Part shown: positions 3,855 to 51,492 of the stretch, one piece after another
Numbering within the stretch: position 1 is the stretch's first letter
Layout of the letters: every line of letters starts with the position of its first letter
DNA from: Candidatus Edwardsbacteria bacterium
GTDB lineage: Bacteria; Edwardsbacteria; AC1; JBFLXN01
Reading direction: 5' to 3'
DNA length: 53,017 bases
Assembly: GCA_040755715.1 (NCBI GenBank)
Contig: JBFLXN010000001.1
Location: 1 to 53,017, forward strand
Made by a program: the position numbers and the translations under genes
The notes under the pieces: generated by a model
Database searches by the model: none
What the model saw: only the letters and a program-made list of their open reading frames with translations
What the model was told of the DNA's origin: nothing

Positions 3855-4090
3855 CTGTAACCACAGATTTGACAGATTTTCCGCCAAAGGCGGATCTGCC
3901 CCAGGCATGAAACGGATTACATCAAATAAATATCAAGAATCAAAACCATTCATCCTCCTCCGTTCCGATGGCCATCGGGACGGAAGACAAGCAATCCAAA
4001 ATTTAAAAATTTAACTTTTCTTGCTCCTTTTTTTATTCTTGATTTTGGATTTACTTAATCCGTCTAATCCGTTTAATCCGTGGTTTCGTT
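3855..4090. repeat. composite spacer: CACAGAT / AATCCG word arms plus small palindromes
   Basis: 275-nt gap between porD and porA. AACGGATTAC...ATCAAGAATCAAAA faces TTCTTGATTTTGG...TAATCCGT. Inner palindromes at 3881-3893 (CCGCCAAAGGCGG) and 3959-3984 (TCCGTTCCGATGGCCATCGGGACGGA). Confidence 0.5.
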
Positions 4091-4100
4091 TTCTTTCTTT

Positions 4101-4409
4101 CTATTCTTTAAATTCGCTTTCTGGAACCATAGTGATTGCTTGAATCTTAGGTGGACATTCCTTAGCGCAGATGCCACAGCCCTTACAGTAAGCCAGGTCA
4201 ATACCCACAACTTTATCATCTTTAACAATAATTGAAGAGTCAGGGCAATAAATCCAGCAAATCAGACAGTTAGTACATTTTTCGGAATGGTGAACTGGTC
4301 GTAGACTTCGCCAGTCACCCGTTTCAAATTTCTCAGCTGAACCAGGTTCCAGGAGAAGACAACCAGTGGGTAATTCTTTCCAGCCAGGTAATTTTGTACT
4401 TTCATTCAT
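4101..4409 (-). CDS. porD: 2-oxoacid:ferredoxin oxidoreductase delta subunit (2x[4Fe-4S] ferredoxin)
   Basis: 102 aa with two CxxCxxCxxxCP clusters (CTNCLICWIYCP, CKGCGICAKECP). Confidence 0.85.
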   Translation of the reverse strand: MNESTKLPGWKELPTGCLLLEPGSAEKFETGDWRSLRPVHHSEKCTNCLICWIYCPDSSIIVKDDKVVGIDLAYCKGCGICAKECPPKIQAITMVPESEFKE

Positions 4410-29145: not shown

Positions 29146-29204
29146 TCTCTCTCCTTTTGGATCTACGCCTTATGCCTTGCACTTTACGCTTTACGCCTCA
29201 AGCT

Positions 29205-30629
29205 TTACGCTTCAAGCGTCCAGCGTTTAGCACTTTTTATAACATTTCCCTTCTCATCAAGGTAAATAGTCTTAATTTTATTCTCCTGTTCATCGTATTC
29301 AAAACGCACCGTGGCAAAATGCAAATCCTTGCGATTCTTCAGTTGTCCATTTTTGTCGTAATAACTCTCCTCAATCTTTTTTCCCTGCTCGTCATATTTG
29401 TAACGAACACTGGCAGCTCCCAAATATTTGTGTTCTTTTAACTTCTCATCCTTGCTGTAATAACTCACTTCCGCCATATTTCCTTCTTCATTGTATCTGT
29501 AACGCAGAATGGCGAAGCCAAAATCGTTACGCTCTTTCAATTGCCCATCAGCGCCGTAATAACTTTCCTCAATCTTATTTCTTTGCTCATCATATTTCCA
29601 GCGATAGATGGCGAAGCCCTCTATGTCTTCTATCAATTTCTCACTGGCACTATAATAGCTTTCCTCAGTCATATTTCCTTGGTCATTGTATTTGTAATGG
29701 ACAATGGGAATGAAGGATATGAATTTCCTATTCTTTCCGTAGTAAGCTATCTCAATTCTATTCCCCTTACTATCATATTTAGAACATACAGCGGCGACCC
29801 TCCAATCTTCACGCTCTTTTAGTTGGCCATCGGTTCCGTAATAACTTTCTTCAGTCACGTTTCCTTGCTCGTCATATTTCCAGCGCCAAATAGCAATACC
29901 AGCCTTGTTTTCTTTCAATTTCTCTTTGGCATCGTAGAGGCTTTCTTCAATCAGATTCTTCTGGTCATCGTATTTATAACGCTCGATGGCAATGCCTGAG
30001 ATCAATTTTGGACCCTTGCCGTAGAGAGCTATATCAATCATGTTTTCTTGTTCATCATATTTCCAGCGTATTTCGTGTCGCCCATATTTGTCCACAATTC
30101 GCTCTCCATTCTTATTAAGCCTAATAGACTTGATTCGGTTACCATTTTCGTCTACAGTCCAGACATATTGAGCAACACCCATATCGTCCTCTGTCAGTTC
30201 ACCATTTCTATCATAGTTGAGCAATGCAATGGGAACACTCTCTTTATTCAGTTTAAGCCCCTGGCAATAAACCCCAAAGCCAGAATTTGTCATCGGATTA
30301 CCCTTCACATCAAAGTAGTGTCTTTTTTCGTAACCCTCGGGATATTCTATCTTGATTTGAGCCACTTCAAAGATAGGGTCGTAACTCAGTTTACCCCGTT
30401 TCAAGTATTCTACTCTAACCAATCTGCCGTTTTCGTTACATACAAGATGATAGCAATCAACCTTGTTGGCGACCTCTTCTGTTATGGGATAGCGACCGAT
30501 AATCTGCCATTTACCGTCCCAAGCAGGCGATGTGATTCGCCGATAATAGATGTCTGTCTCTTTGCCCCATCCGGCAGCAGCCATTAGACTATACAATGCA
30601 AATATCAAGCAGACCGCAATTCTTTTCAT
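29205..30629 (-). CDS. secreted YD/RHS-like repeat protein
   Basis: Preferred start is MKRIAVCLIFALYSLMAAAG (signal peptide). About 10 units of ~31 aa of the form W(R/K)YDEQGN.IEESYY..DG.LKE resemble YD repeats. No toxin tip recognised. Confidence 0.6.
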   Translation of the reverse strand: MKRIAVCLIFALYSLMAAAGWGKETDIYYRRITSPAWDGKWQIIGRYPITEEVANKVDCYHLVCNENGRLVRVEYLKRGKLSYDPIFEVAQIKIEYPEGYEKRHYFDVKGNPMTNSGFGVYCQGLKLNKESVPIALLNYDRNGELTEDDMGVAQYVWTVDENGNRIKSIRLNKNGERIVDKYGRHEIRWKYDEQENMIDIALYGKGPKLISGIAIERYKYDDQKNLIEESLYDAKEKLKENKAGIAIWRWKYDEQGNVTEESYYGTDGQLKEREDWRVAAVCSKYDSKGNRIEIAYYGKNRKFISFIPIVHYKYNDQGNMTEESYYSASEKLIEDIEGFAIYRWKYDEQRNKIEESYYGADGQLKERNDFGFAILRYRYNEEGNMAEVSYYSKDEKLKEHKYLGAASVRYKYDEQGKKIEESYYDKNGQLKNRKDLHFATVRFEYDEQENKIKTIYLDEKGNVIKSAKRWTLEA

Positions 30630-33705: not shown

Positions 33706-33765
33706 TGATTCCTCCCATTATTACATTGTTTGTTAAAACATTGTGAAGCAATCGTCAAACGATAG

Positions 33766-34134
33766 TCAAGCAGTTGTGAAACGACCGATGGATTTAATGT
33801 AATTGTTGAGTTTAACTTTCAGATTTATATAATCCTTAATAAACTTATCATATTCTTCTCCCGTGATATACTTACGCTTCAAGCTAAATAACATAAAGTG
33901 CTTCGTTTCTGTAAGAGAACCGCGTGCCTGACGACAAAACTGCTGGTTTTCTTTATAGTGAAACCGCCCATACCCTTCGGCAATATTTGCCCCTATTGAT
34001 GTACCCGCTCGTCTCAACTGGGAAACAACATTATATTTTTCTTCCTCAGGAAATCTCGAAGTAATATCATAAATCCGGTCTGCCAATTCTATTGATAATT
34101 TATACACCTCTAAGTCATCAAAATCCTTAATCAT
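33766..34134 (-). CDS. four-helix-bundle protein (23S rRNA intervening-sequence protein family)
   Basis: 122 aa. YKLSIELADRIY..T..FP.EEKY.VVSQLRRAGTSIGANIAEGYGR is the family signature. Confidence 0.8.
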   Translation of the reverse strand: MIKDFDDLEVYKLSIELADRIYDITSRFPEEEKYNVVSQLRRAGTSIGANIAEGYGRFHYKENQQFCRQARGSLTETKHFMLFSLKRKYITGEEYDKFIKDYINLKVKLNNYIKSIGRFTTA

Positions 34135-34194
34135 TACTCCTCCTATTGCTTGACCATCGCTTGACTATTGTTTGACTACTCCCCACTCATCGCC

Positions 34195-36798: not shown

Positions 36799-36856
36799 CT
36801 ACGCTTTACACTCTACGCTTGATGCGTTCAGTGTGTAGCGTATAGCGCTCAGCGCG
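36799..36856. repeat. operon-spacer hairpin, word TACGCTT
   Basis: TACGCTTTACAC faces GTGTGTAGCGTA. Further AGCGCT words are present. Confidence 0.5.
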
Positions 36857-36857
36857 C

Positions 36858-38033
36858 CTATGCTTTCTCTAACGCCTGTTTCAAATCTTCAATGATATCC
36901 TCAGCATCTTCTAAGCCCACCGAAAGCCTAATTAAACCCGGTGTAATACCGAATTTCAAACATTCTTCTTCACTATAAGTATAATGCGTCATTGACGCTG
37001 GATGCTCAATCAAGGTATCTGTATCTCCCAAACTCACAGCCAGAGTGCAAAGTTTAACACTATTACAAACTCGCCGGCCTGCTTCTCTACCACCAGTCAA
37101 TTCAAAAGCAACCATTCCTCCAAAATCACTCATTTGTTTCTTCGCAATTGTATGTTGTGGATGGCTTGTCAGTCCTGGATAAAAGACTCTTTTTACTTTT
37201 TTATGTGATTCCAAGAACTTTGCTACTTGCATGGCATTTTCTGAATGTCTTTTCATTCTCACGGCTAAAGTTTTCAATCCCCGCAAATTCAAGAATGCAT
37301 TAAAAGGACTAGCACATCCACCAATGTTAATCGCATAGTCATTCTTTACCATCTCCACAAAATCCTTTTTGCCTACCATTATTCCGCCAATGGTATCTCC
37401 GTGTCCACCGATATACTTTGTAGTACTGTGAATCACAATATCTGCACCCCACTCCAATGGACGCTGAAGATAAGGAGTAGCAAATGTGTTATCAACAATA
37501 AGCGGCAAGCGATGCCTTTTGCAAAGCCTTGATACCGTCCCAATATCAATCACCTTTAAGTTAGGATTTGTTGGCGTTTCTATATATACCAATTTTGTAT
37601 TTTTCTGAATTTCCTTTTCTATGTTTTTGGTACTGATAGCATCGACAAGACTTATTTTAATTCCTAACTTAGGGAGAACATTAGTAAAAAGAGCAAATGT
37701 TCCTCCATAAAGTGTATTATCTGAAATGAGATGAGCTCCGTTTGAAGCTAAAGCGAAAATAGTAGCAAAAATCGCCGCCATACCTGAAGCAAAAGCCAGC
37801 CCTTCTTCTGCACCTTCTAAATAAGCAACTTTTCTTTCCAGGGCAGAAATTGTTGGATTTCCAAGACGGGTATAGATATATCCCTCCTTCTTCTTGGCAA
37901 AGAGTGCCGCACCTTCTTCTGCATTCTTGAAGACAAAGGTAGAAGTCTGATAGATTGGAGGGACATGTGCCCCAGTTGCAGGGTCGGGTTTTAGCCCTCC
38001 GTGAACTACTTTAGTGTTCATCTTGTAACGCAT
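36858..38033 (-). CDS. methionine gamma-lyase / Cys-Met-metabolism PLP enzyme
   Basis: 391 aa. Has the HSTTKYIGGHGD PLP-lysine motif. AGGAGG lies 8 nt upstream of the ATG. Gamma-lyase versus sulfhydrylase cannot be resolved by eye. Confidence 0.7.
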   Translation of the reverse strand: MRYKMNTKVVHGGLKPDPATGAHVPPIYQTSTFVFKNAEEGAALFAKKKEGYIYTRLGNPTISALERKVAYLEGAEEGLAFASGMAAIFATIFALASNGAHLISDNTLYGGTFALFTNVLPKLGIKISLVDAISTKNIEKEIQKNTKLVYIETPTNPNLKVIDIGTVSRLCKRHRLPLIVDNTFATPYLQRPLEWGADIVIHSTTKYIGGHGDTIGGIMVGKKDFVEMVKNDYAINIGGCASPFNAFLNLRGLKTLAVRMKRHSENAMQVAKFLESHKKVKRVFYPGLTSHPQHTIAKKQMSDFGGMVAFELTGGREAGRRVCNSVKLCTLAVSLGDTDTLIEHPASMTHYTYSEEECLKFGITPGLIRLSVGLEDAEDIIEDLKQALEKA

Positions 38034-38062
38034 AGATATCTCCTCCTAATACGCTTTACGCC

Positions 38063-38533
38063 TCACGCTTCCCGCTTTTGGCATGGGGTGTCTTTGTTAA
38101 CTCTTTCTATCGTTTTCTTGTCTTCAATTAACTCTATTAAGACACCCAAGGTAGTTTCGGGTTTAAAGAAGACAACTCGTTTACCTTCACTACCCATCCG
38201 TGGTGTATCAATCGTTTGTATCCCATTTTGAGCTAACTGAGATAATACGGTATCTAAATTTTTTACTCCAAAACAAATATGGTGAAGTCCGGGGCCTCTC
38301 TTTCTAATAAATCGGGCAATGACACTATCTTCCTTTAATGATTCCAAAAGTTCAATCTTTATCCCTTTCAAATCAAAGAGAGCCAGACGAATTCCTCGCT
38401 CTGGCAATGTTACTATCTTATATTTCCCCAGGGTAAAGACTTCACCATAAAGTTTTGTAGCCATCTCTAAATTCTCTACCGCAATGCCGATATGGTCAAA
38501 TTTAGAAAACAACTTTTTCTTTGTACTCACCAA
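38063..38533 (-). CDS. mce: methylmalonyl-CoA epimerase (VOC family)
   Basis: 156 aa. [12 protein letters not shown]...[10 protein letters not shown] matches the epimerase pattern. Overlaps the mutase gene. The last codons run into TACGCTT-type words. Confidence 0.8.
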
Positions 38534-46831: not shown

Positions 46832-47646
46832 AATGGTTTCTCCAAATCTTTACTACACACTATTCCTATTTTGAGGTCGTGTTCAAAGATTAATAGCCAT
46901 TCTTCTTCCTTTGCTTTCTTAAGTAATTCCTTCTTTTTCCCCATTGTCACAAGCGGATAGAGGTCGTAGCCCATCACAAAAGGAATCTTCAGGTGTGAGG
47001 TTGTAGGAATTAAATCACCAAAGTATATAGCCGTCTTTTCTCCGTCCTGAATTAAAATACTCTGATGTCCCTCAGTATGTCCTCCGGTAACCAAAGTCTT
47101 TATCCCCGGCACTATCTCTATATCTCCCTCAATTAATTCTAATTGTTTAAACTCTAACAAGGGAAGAAAATTCTCTGCAAGATAACTTGCCTTTGTCCTC
47201 TCATTGGGTGAAATAGCGTCTTCCCATTCTTTTTTTTGAATAAAATACTTTGCTTTTGGAAATGTTGGCACAATTTTGCCGTCTTCTGTCCTTATGGTAT
47301 TCCCACCGCAGTGGTCAAAATGCAGATGTGTATTTATGACAATGTCAATATTGTTTGGCGACACTCCAATCTTTTTGAGTGAAGAAATTAGTGTATCTTT
47401 TTTGTCAATTCCATATATCTCGGCAATTTTTTTGCTGAACTTATCTCCTATCCCTGTATCAATCAATATTTTTTTGCCCTTTGTTTCAATCAAGAGACAG
47501 TTCAGTCCCAATTCAATTCTATTCTTTTCATCAGGTGTGCTAAGTCTCTCCCAGATAACCTTAGGGACGACGCCAAACATCGCCCCTCCATCAAGAGCAA
47601 ATTTTCCATCACTCAAAAGAAAAATTTCCATACTTCTGAATTTCAC
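46828..47646 (-). CDS. MBL-fold metallo-hydrolase
   Basis: 272 aa with [10 protein letters not shown] (HxHxDH). Has a 4-nt overlap with the PCC-beta start. Confidence 0.75.
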
Positions 47647-47678
47647 TTTTAATTTCCCTTCAAAGGCTTGCTAAAAAA

Positions 47679-47737
47679 AGTTCATAGTTCATGGTTCGTA
47701 GTTCATACCATCAACTATAAACTATGAACTATCAACT
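47679..47737. repeat. operon-spacer hairpin, word GTTCATA
   Basis: Arm 47679-47706 matches the reverse complement of 47710-47737 at 23 of 28 positions, with a 3-nt loop. The right arm overlaps the stop of the B12-subunit gene. Confidence 0.75.
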
Positions 47738-48133
47738 GTGTTTCTTCACTGTTTTCTGGATAAAGTTGACTATTTCCGTAGTGGGTGTACCTGGGCCAAA
47801 AAGTTGTTTCACCCCCATTTTTTTTAGCGCCCTTATGTCTTCCTCAGGAATTATCCCCCCCCCTGTAAGTGTAATTCCAGTTGCCTTCTTTTCTTTTAAG
47901 AGTTTAAGGATTTTAGGAAAGACTGTCATATGGGCACCAGAAAGGATGCTTACTCCTATTACCTCCACATCTTCTTGAATTGCTGTTTCTACAATCATTT
48001 CTGGTGTTTGATGCAGACCGGTATAAATAACTTCCATTCCTGCATCTCTCAGGGCCCTGGCTACGACTTTTGCTCCCCGGTCATGCCCATCAAGTCCAGG
48101 TTTAGCGATTAAAACACGAATCTTTCTCTCCAT
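47732..48133 (-). CDS. B12-binding small subunit of an acyl-CoA mutase
   Basis: 133 aa. [20 protein letters not shown] carries the DxHxxG base-off/His-on motif, and GGG.IP is present. Confidence 0.85.
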
Positions 48134-48159
48134 AATGCCTCCGATAGACGCTTCACGCC

Positions 48160-48555
48160 TTACGCTTCACGCTTCACGCTCGAGGCTTGACGTCTCTGGC
48201 GTTTAACACTAAGCGCATTTCTAAATTTTCTAGTTTTTGCTTCAATTTTATCACAAAATTCACAGATATCTTTAACTACAATGTTTTCAAGAAATCCCAG
48301 CCTCTCACATACTTTCATACAGGCAATTATTTCAACAAGTGACTTAAGAGAAATCCCAAGAAATCTTCTGAATTCGGCATCGCTGTCCGAAGCTCTTCCT
48401 TCTGCGATATTTAAAGATACAGAGACAGCGACTCTTTTGAGTTGACTTGACAAGCCAAATTTTTCATCTTCTGGGAGTTTTGCTGTAATTTTGTATATCT
48501 TTTCCACAAGATCCAATGACAATTGCCATATCTCTAATTTTTCAAAAGGATACAT
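48160..48555 (-). CDS. four-helix-bundle protein (23S rRNA intervening-sequence protein family)
   Basis: 131 aa. [44 protein letters not shown]. The C-terminal tail SSVKREA is encoded by ACGCTTC words. Confidence 0.8.
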
Positions 48556-48647
48556 TCAATCCTCCTTTTAGGCACGTTTTACGCCTTACGCTCGGTGCCT
48601 GGCGTTCAGCGTCAAGCGTCAGGCATTTAGCGTTTAGCGTCCAGCAT

Positions 48648-50297
48648 TCAAAAGACCGGTGGTTCTTTATATTCGCCAAAGACTTCTCTCAAGGCGTCAC
48701 AAATCTCACCAATGGTGGTATAACAACGAACGCATTCTAAGAATCTTGGCATTAGATTATCTTTGCTTTTGGCGGCTTTTTTTAATTGTTCCAGAGTCTT
48801 CTTCACTTTCAAGTTGTCTCTCTCCCGACGCACTTTATTTAAGTTTTTGATTTGTTCTTGCTCCACCCCAGGACCAATCTTCAAGAGTTCAATTTCCGGT
48901 TGTATTTCATCTGCGAATTCATTCACTCCCACCACAATTTTTTCTTTTTTCTCAAGTTCTTTTTGATAGCGGTAAGCACTGTCGGCAATTTCCTTCTGGA
49001 AGAATCCTTTCTCAATCGCCTTAATTACTCCACCTAAGATTTCAATCTTTTCAAAATATTTTTCTGCTTCTTCTACCATCCTGTTAGTTAATACTTCTAC
49101 ATAATATGAACCAGCAAGTGGGTCAATGGTATTGGCGACTCCAGTTTCGTAAGCAATAACCTGCTGGGTTCGCAAGGCAATTTTGGCTGCCTTTTCTGTT
49201 GGTAAAGCATAAGTTTCATCCATTGAATTAGTGTGCAGACTTTGTGTTCCACCCAAAACTGCTGATAAGGCTTCAAACGCGGTGCGCACAATATTATTTT
49301 CCGGCTGTTGAGCGGTAAGACTGCAACCCGCAGTTTGGGTATGAAATCTCAGAAGACAAGACCGTGGGTCTTTGGCTTTGTACTTTTCTTTCATCCTTTT
49401 AGCCCAGATGCGTCTGGCCGCTCTATATTTGGCTATTTCTTCAAAAAAATCTAAATGAGCATTAAAGAAGAAAGAAAGGCGTGGGGCAAATGTATCTACC
49501 TCCATACCAGCTCTTACCCCCGCCTCCACATAGGCAAATCCATTGGCTAAAGTAAAAGCCAGTTCCTGAACTGCTGTTGAACCGGCTTCACGAATGTGGT
49601 AACCACTGATGCTGATGGTATTCCATTTCGGCACATAATCGGCACTGAATTTCATAATATCAGTAATGATGCGCATTGAAGGTTCGGGAGGAAAAATCCA
49701 GGATTTCTGGGCTTGATACTCTTTTAATATATCATTTTGAATTGTGCCAGTGAGAAGCTTTGAGTCAACGCTCTGTTTTTCTCCCACCGCTATATACATC
49801 GCCAAAAGAATTCCTGCTGGGGCATTAATCGTCATAGAAGTAGAAATCTTATCCAATGGAATACCGTGGAATATTGTCTCCATATCCTTCAGAGAGTCAA
49901 CTGCTACTCCGCATCTTCCCACTTCACCTTTGGAAAGCGGATGGTCAGAATCTCTCCCATAAAGTGTAGGAAAATGAAAGGCGACCGAAAGTCCTGTCTG
50001 ACCGTGTTTGAGAAGAAATTTATATCTGGCATTTGTATCTTTGGGTGTACCGAATCCTGAAAATTGACGCATTGTCCACAACCGTCCACGATACATATTG
50101 TAATAGACACCACGAGTATAAGGATATTCTCCTGGAAAACCTATGTCTTTCAAATAATCTACGCCCACGACATCTTCTGGTGTATAAAGCACTCCTACTG
50201 GCTCTCCTGAAATAGTCGTAAATTTCCACGGTCTCTGTTTACCCTCTTCGGAGAGTTTTCTCTCCCATTCTTTTCTAAGTTTGTTTATCTCATCCAT
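48648..50297 (-). CDS. acyl-CoA mutase large subunit, ICM-type (Phe/Gln) with an atypical AFHFPT motif
   Basis: Preferred start is [11 protein letters not shown], with GAGGT upstream. TMRQFSGF and [15 protein letters not shown] carry the Phe80/Gln198-type substitutions. [15 protein letters not shown] replaces the usual AFD(L/M)PT..GYDSD. Confidence 0.8.
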
Positions 50298-50378
50298 ATT
50301 TTTTACCTCGCTAATAAATTTAAAAATCACATATTGCCATGTAAAATAAATAAGGGTTGTATTTGCCCAGACTGCGAA

Positions 50379-50407
50379 ATCATACCTTTAGTTAGTTGAC
50401 AAAGCAA
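50379..50407 (-). promoter_or_regulatory. possible promoter upstream of the ICM-type mutase gene
   Basis: Minus strand reads TTGCTT, 17 nt, TATGAT. Only a moderate match to consensus. Confidence 0.25.
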
Positions 50408-50505: not shown

Positions 50506-51492
50506 TTATCTTCTCCTCTTGGCTAAAAGGTTATCAACTATTTTGAATGGGTCAATTTCTTTCTTATATATCCGTTCCACTGCTTCATCCAAACGATTCT
50601 CTTTGAGAGTAAGATGTTCTCTAATTTTTTCTTCCAATATTGCCTTGAGTTGGGATTTAATCTGGCGTTTACGATTGACTTCAAAAAGCCCACTATTTGT
50701 TAAATATCTTCTGTGTGTAAGTATAGATTGTAGAAGTCCATCAATTCCTTTATCGTTAACTGCTTCAGTCATCAATATGGGATAGTCCCAGCCATTGTTT
50801 TTCTGGCGGAGTTCCGAAACAACCTTTAGTTCCTTAACCAAACCGTGTGCCCCTTGTCTATCAGCTTTATTAACCACAATAATATCAGCAATCTCTAATA
50901 ATCCAGCTTTCATCACTTGAATGCTATCTCCGGATTCTGGCACCAGAACCAGAACGGTAGTATCGCCAGCATCAGCGATATCCAGTTCAACCTGACCGAC
51001 ACCCACGGTTTCAATAATAACATAATCTATTCCGAAGGCCTCCATTAGCAAAGCTACCTCATTAGTTGCTCGGGCTAATCCTCCAAGACTCCCTCTGGTA
51101 GCCATACTTCTGATGAAGAGGCCTTCTTTACCAGTCAACTCCATCATCCGAATGCGGTCGCCTAAGATTGCCCCCCCCGAAAATGGACTGGTCGGGTCAA
51201 CCGCAATAATCCCAACTTTTTCTCCTTTAGCCAAAATTCTCTGGGCAAGTTTGTCAACCAGAGTGCTCTTTCCTGCTCCGGGGGGACCAGTAATTCCAAG
51301 ACGATAACTCTCTCTACTATGAGAGAAAATTTCTCTCAGGAGATGCTTATAACCATCAGAGCGATTTTCTACTTGAGAAATCGCCTTGGCTAAAGCAACT
51401 TTGTCACCTTTGAGGAGACCCTTTACTAAGTGTAGGGGCGTGGCAACCCCGCTACCACGGTTTGATATTTTGGGGATTTTCTTCAATGGCAT
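50506..51492 (-). CDS. meaB: MeaB/ArgK-type G-protein chaperone of B12 mutases
   Basis: 328 aa. GITGPPGAGKSTL (P-loop), IIETVGVGQ and VVNKAD motifs. Confidence 0.85.
   Translation of the reverse strand: MPLKKIPKISNRGSGVATPLHLVKGLLKGDKVALAKAISQVENRSDGYKHLLREIFSHSRESYRLGITGPPGAGKSTLVDKLAQRILAKGEKVGIIAVDPTSPFSGGAILGDRIRMMELTGKEGLFIRSMATRGSLGGLARATNEVALLMEAFGIDYVIIETVGVGQVELDIADAGDTTVLVLVPESGDSIQVMKAGLLEIADIIVVNKADRQGAHGLVKELKVVSELRQKNNGWDYPILMTEAVNDKGIDGLLQSILTHRRYLTNSGLFEVNRKRQIKSQLKAILEEKIREHLTLKENRLDEAVERIYKKEIDPFKIVDNLLAKRRR

Follow-up and report, generated by a model that had tools for sequence, protein, structure and literature searches.

A PF05635 gene within inverted heptamer arrays: a probable intervening-sequence-type cassette between the two subunit genes of an acyl-CoA mutase operon

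We analyzed a stretch of 53,017 nucleotides from contig JBFLXN010000001.1 of a Candidatus Edwardsbacteria bacterium (hereinafter, the window), and in particular the 514-nt interval that separates the genes for the large and the B12-binding small subunits of an acyl-CoA mutase. This interval carries an open reading frame (ORF) of the S23p family, also known as the "23S rRNA intervening sequence (IVS) protein" family, bracketed by inverted arrays of heptamer words. The genes on the minus strand are ordered as meaB GTPase, mutase large subunit, the 514-nt interval, B12-binding small subunit, a metallo-beta-lactamase (MBL)-fold gene, and a carboxyltransferase gene. The features of the locus, in the 5'-to-3' order of the minus strand, are as follows.

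50506-51492, minus strand: meaB GTPase gene, first in the gene order, 5' of the mutase large-subunit gene
48648-50330, minus strand: acyl-CoA mutase large-subunit gene (MM_CoA_mutase PF01642, 755 bits; TIGR00641, 782 bits), with the stop codon TGA at 48650-48648
48601-48647, minus strand: 5' arm, six words (ACGCT AA ACGCT AA ATGCC TG ACGCT TG ACGCT GA ACGCC)
48573-48600, minus strand: inner segment between the 5' arm and the ribosome-binding site of the ORF
48561-48567, minus strand: Shine-Dalgarno sequence AAGGAGG of the cassette ORF, 5 nt 5' of its ATG
48160-48555, minus strand: cassette ORF, 131 amino acids, S23p / "23S rRNA IVS protein" (PF05635, E = 2e-30)
48134-48195, minus strand: 3' arm, five to six AGCGT/GGCGT words (AGCGT-GA-AGCGT-GA-AGCGT-AA-GGCGT-GA-AGCGT)
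47732-48133, minus strand: B12-binding small-subunit gene (PF02310, 92.6 bits; TIGR00640, 177.6 bits)

The first-pass annotation of this DNA, made from the letters and the list of reading frames, had claimed that an IVS-family ORF splits the mutase large subunit from the only B12-binding subunit. The profile matches and the coordinates agree with this, and the B12-binding subunit is indeed single in the whole window according to both the profile matches and a single tblastn match. An independent Logan contig from the source metagenome spans positions 47000-50400 with no differences, and thus the cassette is not an assembly artefact. A scan of positions 47000-49500 with Rfam found no rRNA or other RNA family.

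By each feature examined (profile, motif, predicted fold), the encoded protein is a member of PF05635. It scores 105.5 bits against this family (cut-off 33.8), matching profile positions 1-103 out of 106, and 100.4 bits against TIGR02436, "four helix bundle protein" (cut-off 24), so that the family assignment made at first pass passes the curated cut-offs of both profiles. Zhang and Ye (2013; PMC3936711) quote GxxRxxxSxxxNxxE as the family motif; the part R-x3-S-x3-N-x2-E is present here, with Gln instead of Gly at the first position, and among 36 sequences Arg41, Asn49, Glu52, and Gly53 are invariant, Ser45 being conserved in at least 90%. The AlphaFold2 model (pLDDT 94.4) consists of four long helices forming a four-helix bundle, and Foldseek aligns it with XCC0516 (PDB:2GSC) at TM-scores of 0.84/0.94 and a root-mean-square deviation of 1.1 A, and also with BT_0352 (PDB:2RLD) and, more remotely, with Avd (PDB:4DWL, 8UB7). 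The 2GSC and 2RLD entries contain five chains each. Comparison with homologues yields dN/dS of 0.02-0.10 at saturated synonymous sites (pS about 0.7), which points to strong purifying selection on the protein.

The ORF is enclosed by words of the type ACGCUnn on the 5' side and AGCGUnn on the 3' side. The 5' arm begins at the base directly after the large-subunit stop codon, while the 3' arm covers the final 7-12 codons of the ORF with its stop codon and extends up to the nucleotide preceding the B12 ATG, thus including the Shine-Dalgarno sequence of the B12 gene. As proposed at first pass, the last codons of the ORF (SSVKREA*) are encoded by this 3' arm, which was there called the left arm; the string quoted for it is present, and its start lies at 48147 rather than 48148. 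Within the inner segment, GGCAC/GTGCC enclose a short proximal version of the 3'-arm words (AGCGTAAGGCGTAAAACGT), an imperfect direct repeat of the distal 3' arm (75-78%), and hence the ORF is flanked by direct as well as inverted repeats; the same layout, with proximal and distal copies of the GCGT array, is seen in loci L087, L091, and L179 (loci are numbered as in our collection).

These repeats are well beyond chance. A repeat search pairs positions 48142-48179 with 48602-48639 (38 nt, 76% complementary), and Tandem Repeats Finder reports 4.7 copies of period 7 at 48148-48180 and periods 7, 14, and 21 at 48601-48650. The word ACGCTTCACGCT, with at most two mismatches, occurs 19 times in the window compared to 2.1 expected, a nine-fold excess, and none of 100 shuffles reaches 19. 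The energy of the arm-arm duplex is -77.8 kcal/mol compared to -44.0 +/- 5.5 in shuffled sequences, none of 300 shuffles reaching it. Taken together, the complementarity and the duplex energy bear out the earlier description of ACGCTTC-type inverted arms around the ORF. Folding of positions 48134-48647, the check named in the first-pass annotation, pairs the arms in both the minimum-free-energy and the centroid structures of the whole insert (z = -3.4), and in the partition function the word cores of the arms pair long-range with probability close to 1.0.

The predicted helix is about 46 nt long and seals the 514-nt insert precisely where the stop and start codons lie, its closing pair being A48648, the last base of the stop codon, with T48134, the base before the B12 start codon. 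Three out of five bases of the B12 Shine-Dalgarno sequence (GGAGG, 48142-48138, retained as the gene's own) lie in the helix and are paired with probability of about 1, and the Shine-Dalgarno sequence of the cassette ORF is in the loop. The helix is imperfect, with G+C-rich blocks of 5-7 bp alternating with small internal loops, since the 2-nt spacers between the words are A- or purine-rich in both arms.

To see what occupies the same junction elsewhere, we considered 160 loci, drawn from genomic and metagenomic collections, that encode relatives of the large subunit, and two more retrieved by exact look-up. The B12 gene follows on the same strand in 84 loci, with a median gap of 47 nt, and 51 of these 84 gaps do not exceed 60 nt. 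None of the 84 contains a PF05635 ORF between the two genes. A profile built from homologues of the ORF, which recovers the second, 39%-identical copy in the window with E = 3e-28, also finds no PF05635 ORF in any locus fetched with the large-subunit query. A conserved gene at this position in orthologous loci, lacking inverted flanks, had been named at first pass as the observation that would speak for an ordinary operon member; the 84 junctions hold no such gene. The nearest relatives belong to candidate division WOR-3 (78-81% identity, the same order of meaB, large-subunit, B12, and MBL-fold genes), and relatives above 81% identity are absent from the genome, metagenome, and 5.8-billion-protein collections. 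The relatives' junctions are as follows.

L007: 15-nt spacer
L008 and L093: 44-50 nt, including three to five GCTKATG heptamers, a word different from that of the cassette
L185: the large-subunit and B12 genes overlap
L184, positions 4148-4309: 162-nt ORF-less hairpin of GGTTAGN/TAACC words, -48 kcal/mol; large subunit 79% identical, full synteny

Since the related junctions have no such ORF and those of the nearest relatives are empty or otherwise filled, the comparison of sequences supports the cassette as a lineage-specific insertion between the mutase cistrons. Among the contigs of the source metagenome, no empty-site allele is seen.

Other genes have settled at the same junction elsewhere, which makes it a recurrent landing place: a MazG-like ORF in L038 (1402-1731), a nucleotidyltransferase-HEPN pair in L110 (4733-5454), and, in L098 (4763-6004), a Schlafen/AlbA_2 gene of about 400 amino acids according to Pfam, with the genes of L123 and L139 placed in the same group by resemblance.

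The closest homologues of the ORF are 65-81% identical to it, and all those that can be placed reside between genes for a Fer2_4 ferredoxin-like and a Glu_synthase-domain protein in a conserved operon (L001-L006, L087-L090), in every case with four to five ACGC words upstream and four to five GCGT words at the end of the ORF. The same words surround more distant homologues downstream of a cas1-cas2 locus, with a putative CRISPR array in the gap (L091/L092, 62% identity), between a phosphomutase gene and purH (PhosphMutase|AICARFT; L178, 57%), and between an atpD-like gene and a VanZ gene of a G+C-rich genome (ATP-synt_D|VanZ; L173, 56%). Overall, ten out of ten non-redundant members of the subfamily (56-81% amino acid identity) have four to six ACGC words on the 5' side and four to six GCGT words on the 3' side, and this dialect follows one protein subfamily through at least five gene contexts. 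The arms thus belong with the ORF, as the first-pass view of a single element had it. Other subfamilies have other words, namely, GTCAAnC in the second cassette of the window and AGTRACAG in L174.

Among the homologues, there is no conservation between the 5' arm and the ribosome-binding site, and the 3' arm can be either part of the coding sequence or located past the stop codon, depending on the locus. Because, in addition, silent sites are saturated, the word cores are conserved as nucleotides rather than as protein, and they travel with the ORF. At the Fer2_4|Glu_synthase loci, the upstream gene ends within the 5' arm, which contains its last codons and stop codon (e.g., ...KKPDAKR* in L003), and hence the arm provides the host protein with a short basic tail.

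In the tree of 47 homologues, the ORF of the window nests among the copies from the Glu_synthase junction as a sister to L087 (support 87/89). According to the approximately unbiased (AU) test on 11 rows of known context, grouping the six Glu_synthase rows without the window ORF is disfavoured (p = 0.026). On this moderate evidence, the copy at the mutase junction most likely derives from a cassette lineage resident at the junction of the ferredoxin-like and Glu_synthase genes.

Considering the above, we regard it as probable that an IVS-type PF05635 cassette was inserted into the short spacer between the large-subunit stop codon and the B12 Shine-Dalgarno sequence in a lineage of a WOR-3-like groundwater bacterium. 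The insertion plausibly leaves the operon unbroken. The cassette would be transcribed as a part of the mutase operon, since no promoter-like or terminator-like site is found on the coding strand of the insert and the ORF is co-oriented with the operon. In the transcript, the arms would pair into the helix of about 46 nt, with its 5-7-bp G+C-rich blocks and small A-rich internal loops, looping out the ORF and setting the upstream stop codon opposite the downstream start codon, and in this way the insertion could be tolerated. By analogy with the 23S rRNA IVSs of Coxiella and Leptospira, RNase III probably cuts the helix; the two mutase cistrons would thereby be parted, and a small stem-capped mRNA encoding the four-helix-bundle protein would be set free. 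Alternatively or additionally, the helix may preserve coupled translation of both subunits, as in the ancestor that had no insertion.

Several observations weigh against this interpretation. The sole sequencing run that contains the sequence is a DNA metagenome of groundwater, with no RNA run. The arms show no excess of G.U over A.C mismatches (13 vs. 18), i.e., no signal of selection on the sense RNA, and the periodic internal loops may make the helix a poor substrate for RNase III. When the footprint of a terminating ribosome is masked, the B12 Shine-Dalgarno sequence is unpaired with a probability of 0.51 instead of 0.40, which is no clean translational switch and leaves coupling by unmasking as a weak option. 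The locus has no target-site duplication, transposase, or polymorphic empty allele, and its movement is deduced from phylogeny and context, where the tree is built from 131 residues and the AU-tested clade was picked after the first tree had been seen. Finally, the word hairpin could have preceded the ORF, as ORF-less hairpins fill many spacers as well as the junctions of L184, L008, and L093.

The last point amounts to an explanation of its own, best considered with the other word elements of the window, which are located as follows.

33720-34185, minus strand: sibling cassette, with a second PF05635 ORF (33766-34134, 39% identical); it is flanked by crotonase and CoA-transferase genes, and the arms use a different word, GTCAAnC (arm alignment z = 8)
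36800-36858, no strand assigned: ORF-less hairpin, ACGCT x3 followed by AGCGT x3, in an operon spacer
29164-29226: ORF-less hairpin of the ACGCT/AGCGT dialect, in a spacer of the same gene array
38051-38076: single-arm ORF-less element of the ACGCT/AGCGT dialect, in a spacer of the same gene array

Nearly every spacer of this gene array is a word hairpin, and the ORF-less elements of the ACGCT type could be solo derivatives of the cassette or its landing pads. If the hairpin came first, a word hairpin already stood at the mutase junction, its arms served as a landing pad, and the ORF arrived by recombination or template switching between arrays of the same dialect. The abundance of hairpins, three of the same-dialect elements being listed above, agrees with this, as do the ORF-less arrays and hairpins at the same junction in relatives, and the proximal and distal GCGT copies seen here and in L087, L091, and L179 are the footprint expected of recombination within an arm. 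Through such direct repeats of one arm, a cassette could readily turn into a solo hairpin, or a solo hairpin into a cassette. However, the arrays at the relatives' junctions are built from other words (GGTTAGN, GCTKATG), and the fact that the dialect tracks the protein subfamily across unrelated genomes and contexts is easier to understand if the arms move with the ORF. We therefore see the hairpin-first order of events as possible but doubtful.

Another explanation, compatible with a cassette insertion, concerns the purpose of the words rather than their origin: the heptamer arrays may be binding sites for the cassette's own, presumably pentameric, protein, each subfamily reading its own dialect on RNA or DNA, and the complex of protein and array may be the functional unit in autoregulation, in a ribonucleoprotein, or in a step of mobility. 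The ACGC/GCGT cores remain constant across 56-81% protein identity while silent sites are saturated, which structure alone would not demand. Different subfamilies use different words, not only GTCAAnC in the sibling cassette but also AAAAGCT shared by L179 and L181, whose proteins are alike. The fold is that of the XCC0516 pentamer and of Avd, which has been captured in complex with RNA and the reverse transcriptase of a diversity-generating retroelement (DGR) (PDB:8UB7). The number of words per arm in this subfamily, four to six, is suggestive as well, and a model with one protomer of the pentamer per heptamer would suit it; yet the cyanobacterial cassettes described below have 3-14 words, and this one-to-one model fails. 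Besides, co-inheritance of the arms and the ORF together with concerted evolution of tandem words could mimic specificity, and some ORF-less hairpins use a dialect for which the window encodes no corresponding protein. On balance, recognition of the arrays by the cassette's own presumed pentamer is favoured by the conserved dialects but rather unlikely as it stands.

We consider it improbable that the insert is a transposon-like element, similar to a miniature inverted-repeat transposable element, with the arms as terminal repeats recognized as DNA, in duplex or single-strand hairpin form, by an enzyme acting in trans, e.g., a REP-associated tyrosine transposase (RAYT) or another HUH enzyme of the IS200 type. 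Although the inverted ends reach the edges of the insert (AATGC...GCATT) and the protein phylogeny suggests relocation, comparison with the empty sites of L007, L008, and L093 reveals no duplication of host sequence at the ends, and the sole ORF is the four-helix-bundle gene, with no transposase. Complementarity of the arms is only 76%, their sequences vary from copy to copy and even between cassettes of one genome, and near-identical copies are not seen: the two cassettes of the window share no arms, and their proteins are only 39% identical. Moreover, the copies at the Glu_synthase junction have stayed fixed at one site through saturating divergence, unlike an active transposon. Analogies with integron attC sites, retrons, and group II introns were discarded due to the differing anatomy, as here the ORF is flanked by two arms and the cassette has no integrase or reverse transcriptase.

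An ordinary conserved gene of the mutase operon (e.g., a chaperone or a regulator) with incidental repeats would account for the common orientation, tight spacing, strong Shine-Dalgarno sequence, and purifying selection, but is very improbable, indeed excluded as a bona fide operon member by the comparison of loci, as 84 out of 84 related junctions lack the ORF, its closest homologues sit in unrelated operons, and cyanobacterial plasmids carry family members between the genes of various unrelated pairs.

The latter PF05635 genes from cyanobacterial plasmids follow the same design in cultured organisms, being enclosed in inverted heptamer arrays of other words, with the following arrangements (the locus next to cas genes is listed together with other family members found beside CRISPR-Cas genes).

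L180, Nostoc edaphicum CCNP1411, plasmid pNe_5: between ribonucleotide reductase beta and alpha genes, GTAGGGA x8 / TCCCTAC x5
L179, plasmid of Pseudanabaena galeata CCNP1313: between cas6 and cas4, AAAAGCT x14 / AAAAGCC x10, plus an upstream complementary arm
L181, Calothrix: between a secretion-protein gene and an ABC-transporter gene, AAAAGCT words as in L179, protein similar to that of L179
L182, Geminocystis: between parA and parB, AAAGGGA / TTTCCCT
L091, positions 4001-4366; L092, positions 3875-4240; L179, positions 1201-1560: family members beside CRISPR-Cas genes

In L183 (Nostoc PCC 7120), only the 3' array is present. The ORF is antisense to its neighbours in L180 and L181, and therefore the hairpin would still form in the host transcript. 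Flank complementarity is higher in 17 cassettes, not all of them independent, than in 78 control B12 genes (Mann-Whitney p = 6e-7).

A wider reading is that PF05635 genes with inverted heptamer arms constitute one widespread class of cassettes in transcribed junctions, i.e., in rRNA helices, at cistron boundaries, and in cas operons, which would be tolerated due to an RNA stem (via excision or re-juxtaposition of the flanks), with the dialect read by the cassette's own, presumably pentameric, protein and with ORF-less hairpins and arrays as ORF-deleted or non-autonomous derivatives. Under this reading, ORF-less forms, which occupy operon spacers of this genome and are reminiscent of the unexplained heptamer repeats in cyanobacteria, Geobacter, and Beggiatoaceae, could arise, e.g., by deletion between the proximal and distal arm copies. 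We put it forward tentatively, as a generalization that may well not hold in full.

The nearest described relatives of such a cassette are ORF-bearing IVSs of 23S rRNA. In Coxiella burnetii, the IVS in helix 45 is closed by a 28-bp terminal stem with an S23p ORF in its loop, three tandem heptamers GACAGAT precede the ORF, and RNase III cuts at the first repeat, freeing the IVS (PMC4990558). The cassette at the mutase junction resembles the ORF-bearing 23S rRNA IVSs in the protein family (PF05635), the sense ORF in the loop of a long terminal stem, the tandem heptamers in the stem region, the size (430-510 nt), and the residence inside a transcribed unit whose function survives the insertion. 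At the same time, its host is a spacer between cistrons of an mRNA rather than an rRNA helix; its stem is built from words, with periodic internal loops; its ORF has a strong Shine-Dalgarno sequence and bears marks of strong purifying selection, whereas the Coxiella ORF is decaying and apparently untranslated; and RNase III cleavage, demonstrated for the Coxiella IVS, is for the cassette suggested by analogy. As the element is IVS-like in design yet lacks the defining residence in 23S rRNA, we call it an IVS-type cassette in an operon spacer.

Similarly, Avd, the accessory protein of DGRs, has a four-helix-bundle protomer of the same superfamily (Foldseek TM-score of about 0.85 to 4DWL/8UB7) and is pentameric and associated with nucleic acids, but its sequence identity to the cassette protein is 7-10%, and the S23p proteins 2GSC and 2RLD are structurally much closer. 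No reverse transcriptase and no pair of repeats of the template/variable type adjoins the cassette, both neighbours being mutase genes; the rest of the window was not scanned for them.

Co-occurrence of 23S_rRNA_IVP genes with cas genes has been described in the accessible part of the study by Zhang and Ye (2013; PMC3936711), and the loci L179 (between cas6 and cas4) and L091/L092 (downstream of cas1-cas2) repeat it; unlike our description, that text, as far as it is available, includes neither flanking inverted heptamer arrays nor the concept of a cassette. Intergenic heptamer repeats are known as well, e.g., TAACTGA in Beggiatoaceae (PMC4679880) and the heptanucleotide elements of Geobacter (PMC2700814). 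To the extent covered by the available portions of these sources, such repeats, as well as cyanobacterial short tandemly repeated repetitive (STRR) sequences, are likewise tandem 7-nt words of variable copy number in intergenic regions and 5'-untranslated regions, but they are mostly direct arrays with no gene family named, whereas here inverted pairs surround a PF05635 gene. The elements also recall repetitive extragenic palindromes (REPs) and bacterial interspersed mosaic elements (BIMEs) as structured elements between co-transcribed genes, with ORF-less forms being abundant in this genome. However, REPs have one conserved palindrome per family and are mobilized by RAYTs, while here the tandem word differs from hairpin to hairpin, and some of the hairpins bear a gene.

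As for the mutase itself, the large subunit probably starts at 50297 (about 548 amino acids) rather than at the listed GTG at 50330, because its relatives are 546-549 amino acids long and align from the Met at 50297, the listed GTG being 11 codons too early. The signature MRQFSGF / EYQAQKSW, read off the translation, contains the Phe/Gln pair, which we take to be of the "ICM type" (isobutyryl-CoA-type mutase), relying on published knowledge of the residues distinguishing methylmalonyl-CoA mutases from isobutyryl-CoA mutases. Complementarity also exists between the last codons of the large-subunit gene (TTTGGCGA, 48673-48680) and codons 9-11 of the B12 gene (TCGCTAAA, 48101-48108), and these two segments, which lie outside the cassette helix, are predicted to pair with probability of about 1; the pairing may be due to chance, given the conserved FGE and IAK motifs, or may reflect an older hairpin spanning the junction.

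The summed contig depth in the source metagenome is 280 at 47679-47737 and 141 at 48140-48253, compared to 29 elsewhere; these jumps occur at the word arrays, and therefore the same heptamer words are present on other contigs of the sample.

Within the library searched, we found no paper linking PF05635 genes to inverted heptamer arrays outside rRNA. To our knowledge, ORF-bearing IVSs have been a curiosity of 23S rRNA for 30 years. The same module between two cistrons that are needed together shows that it is not specific to rRNA. As a single instance, the locus is incremental; what it adds is the series of junction states, the relocation supported by phylogeny, and the argument for arm conservation from saturated silent sites. 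One junction documents the filled, empty, and hairpin-only states, and arm words that follow the protein subfamily despite the saturation of silent sites point to sequence-specific recognition of heptamers. Thus, the finding bears on the role of the very large S23p family, on the harmlessness of insertions into operons, and on the origin of heptamer repeats in bacteria.

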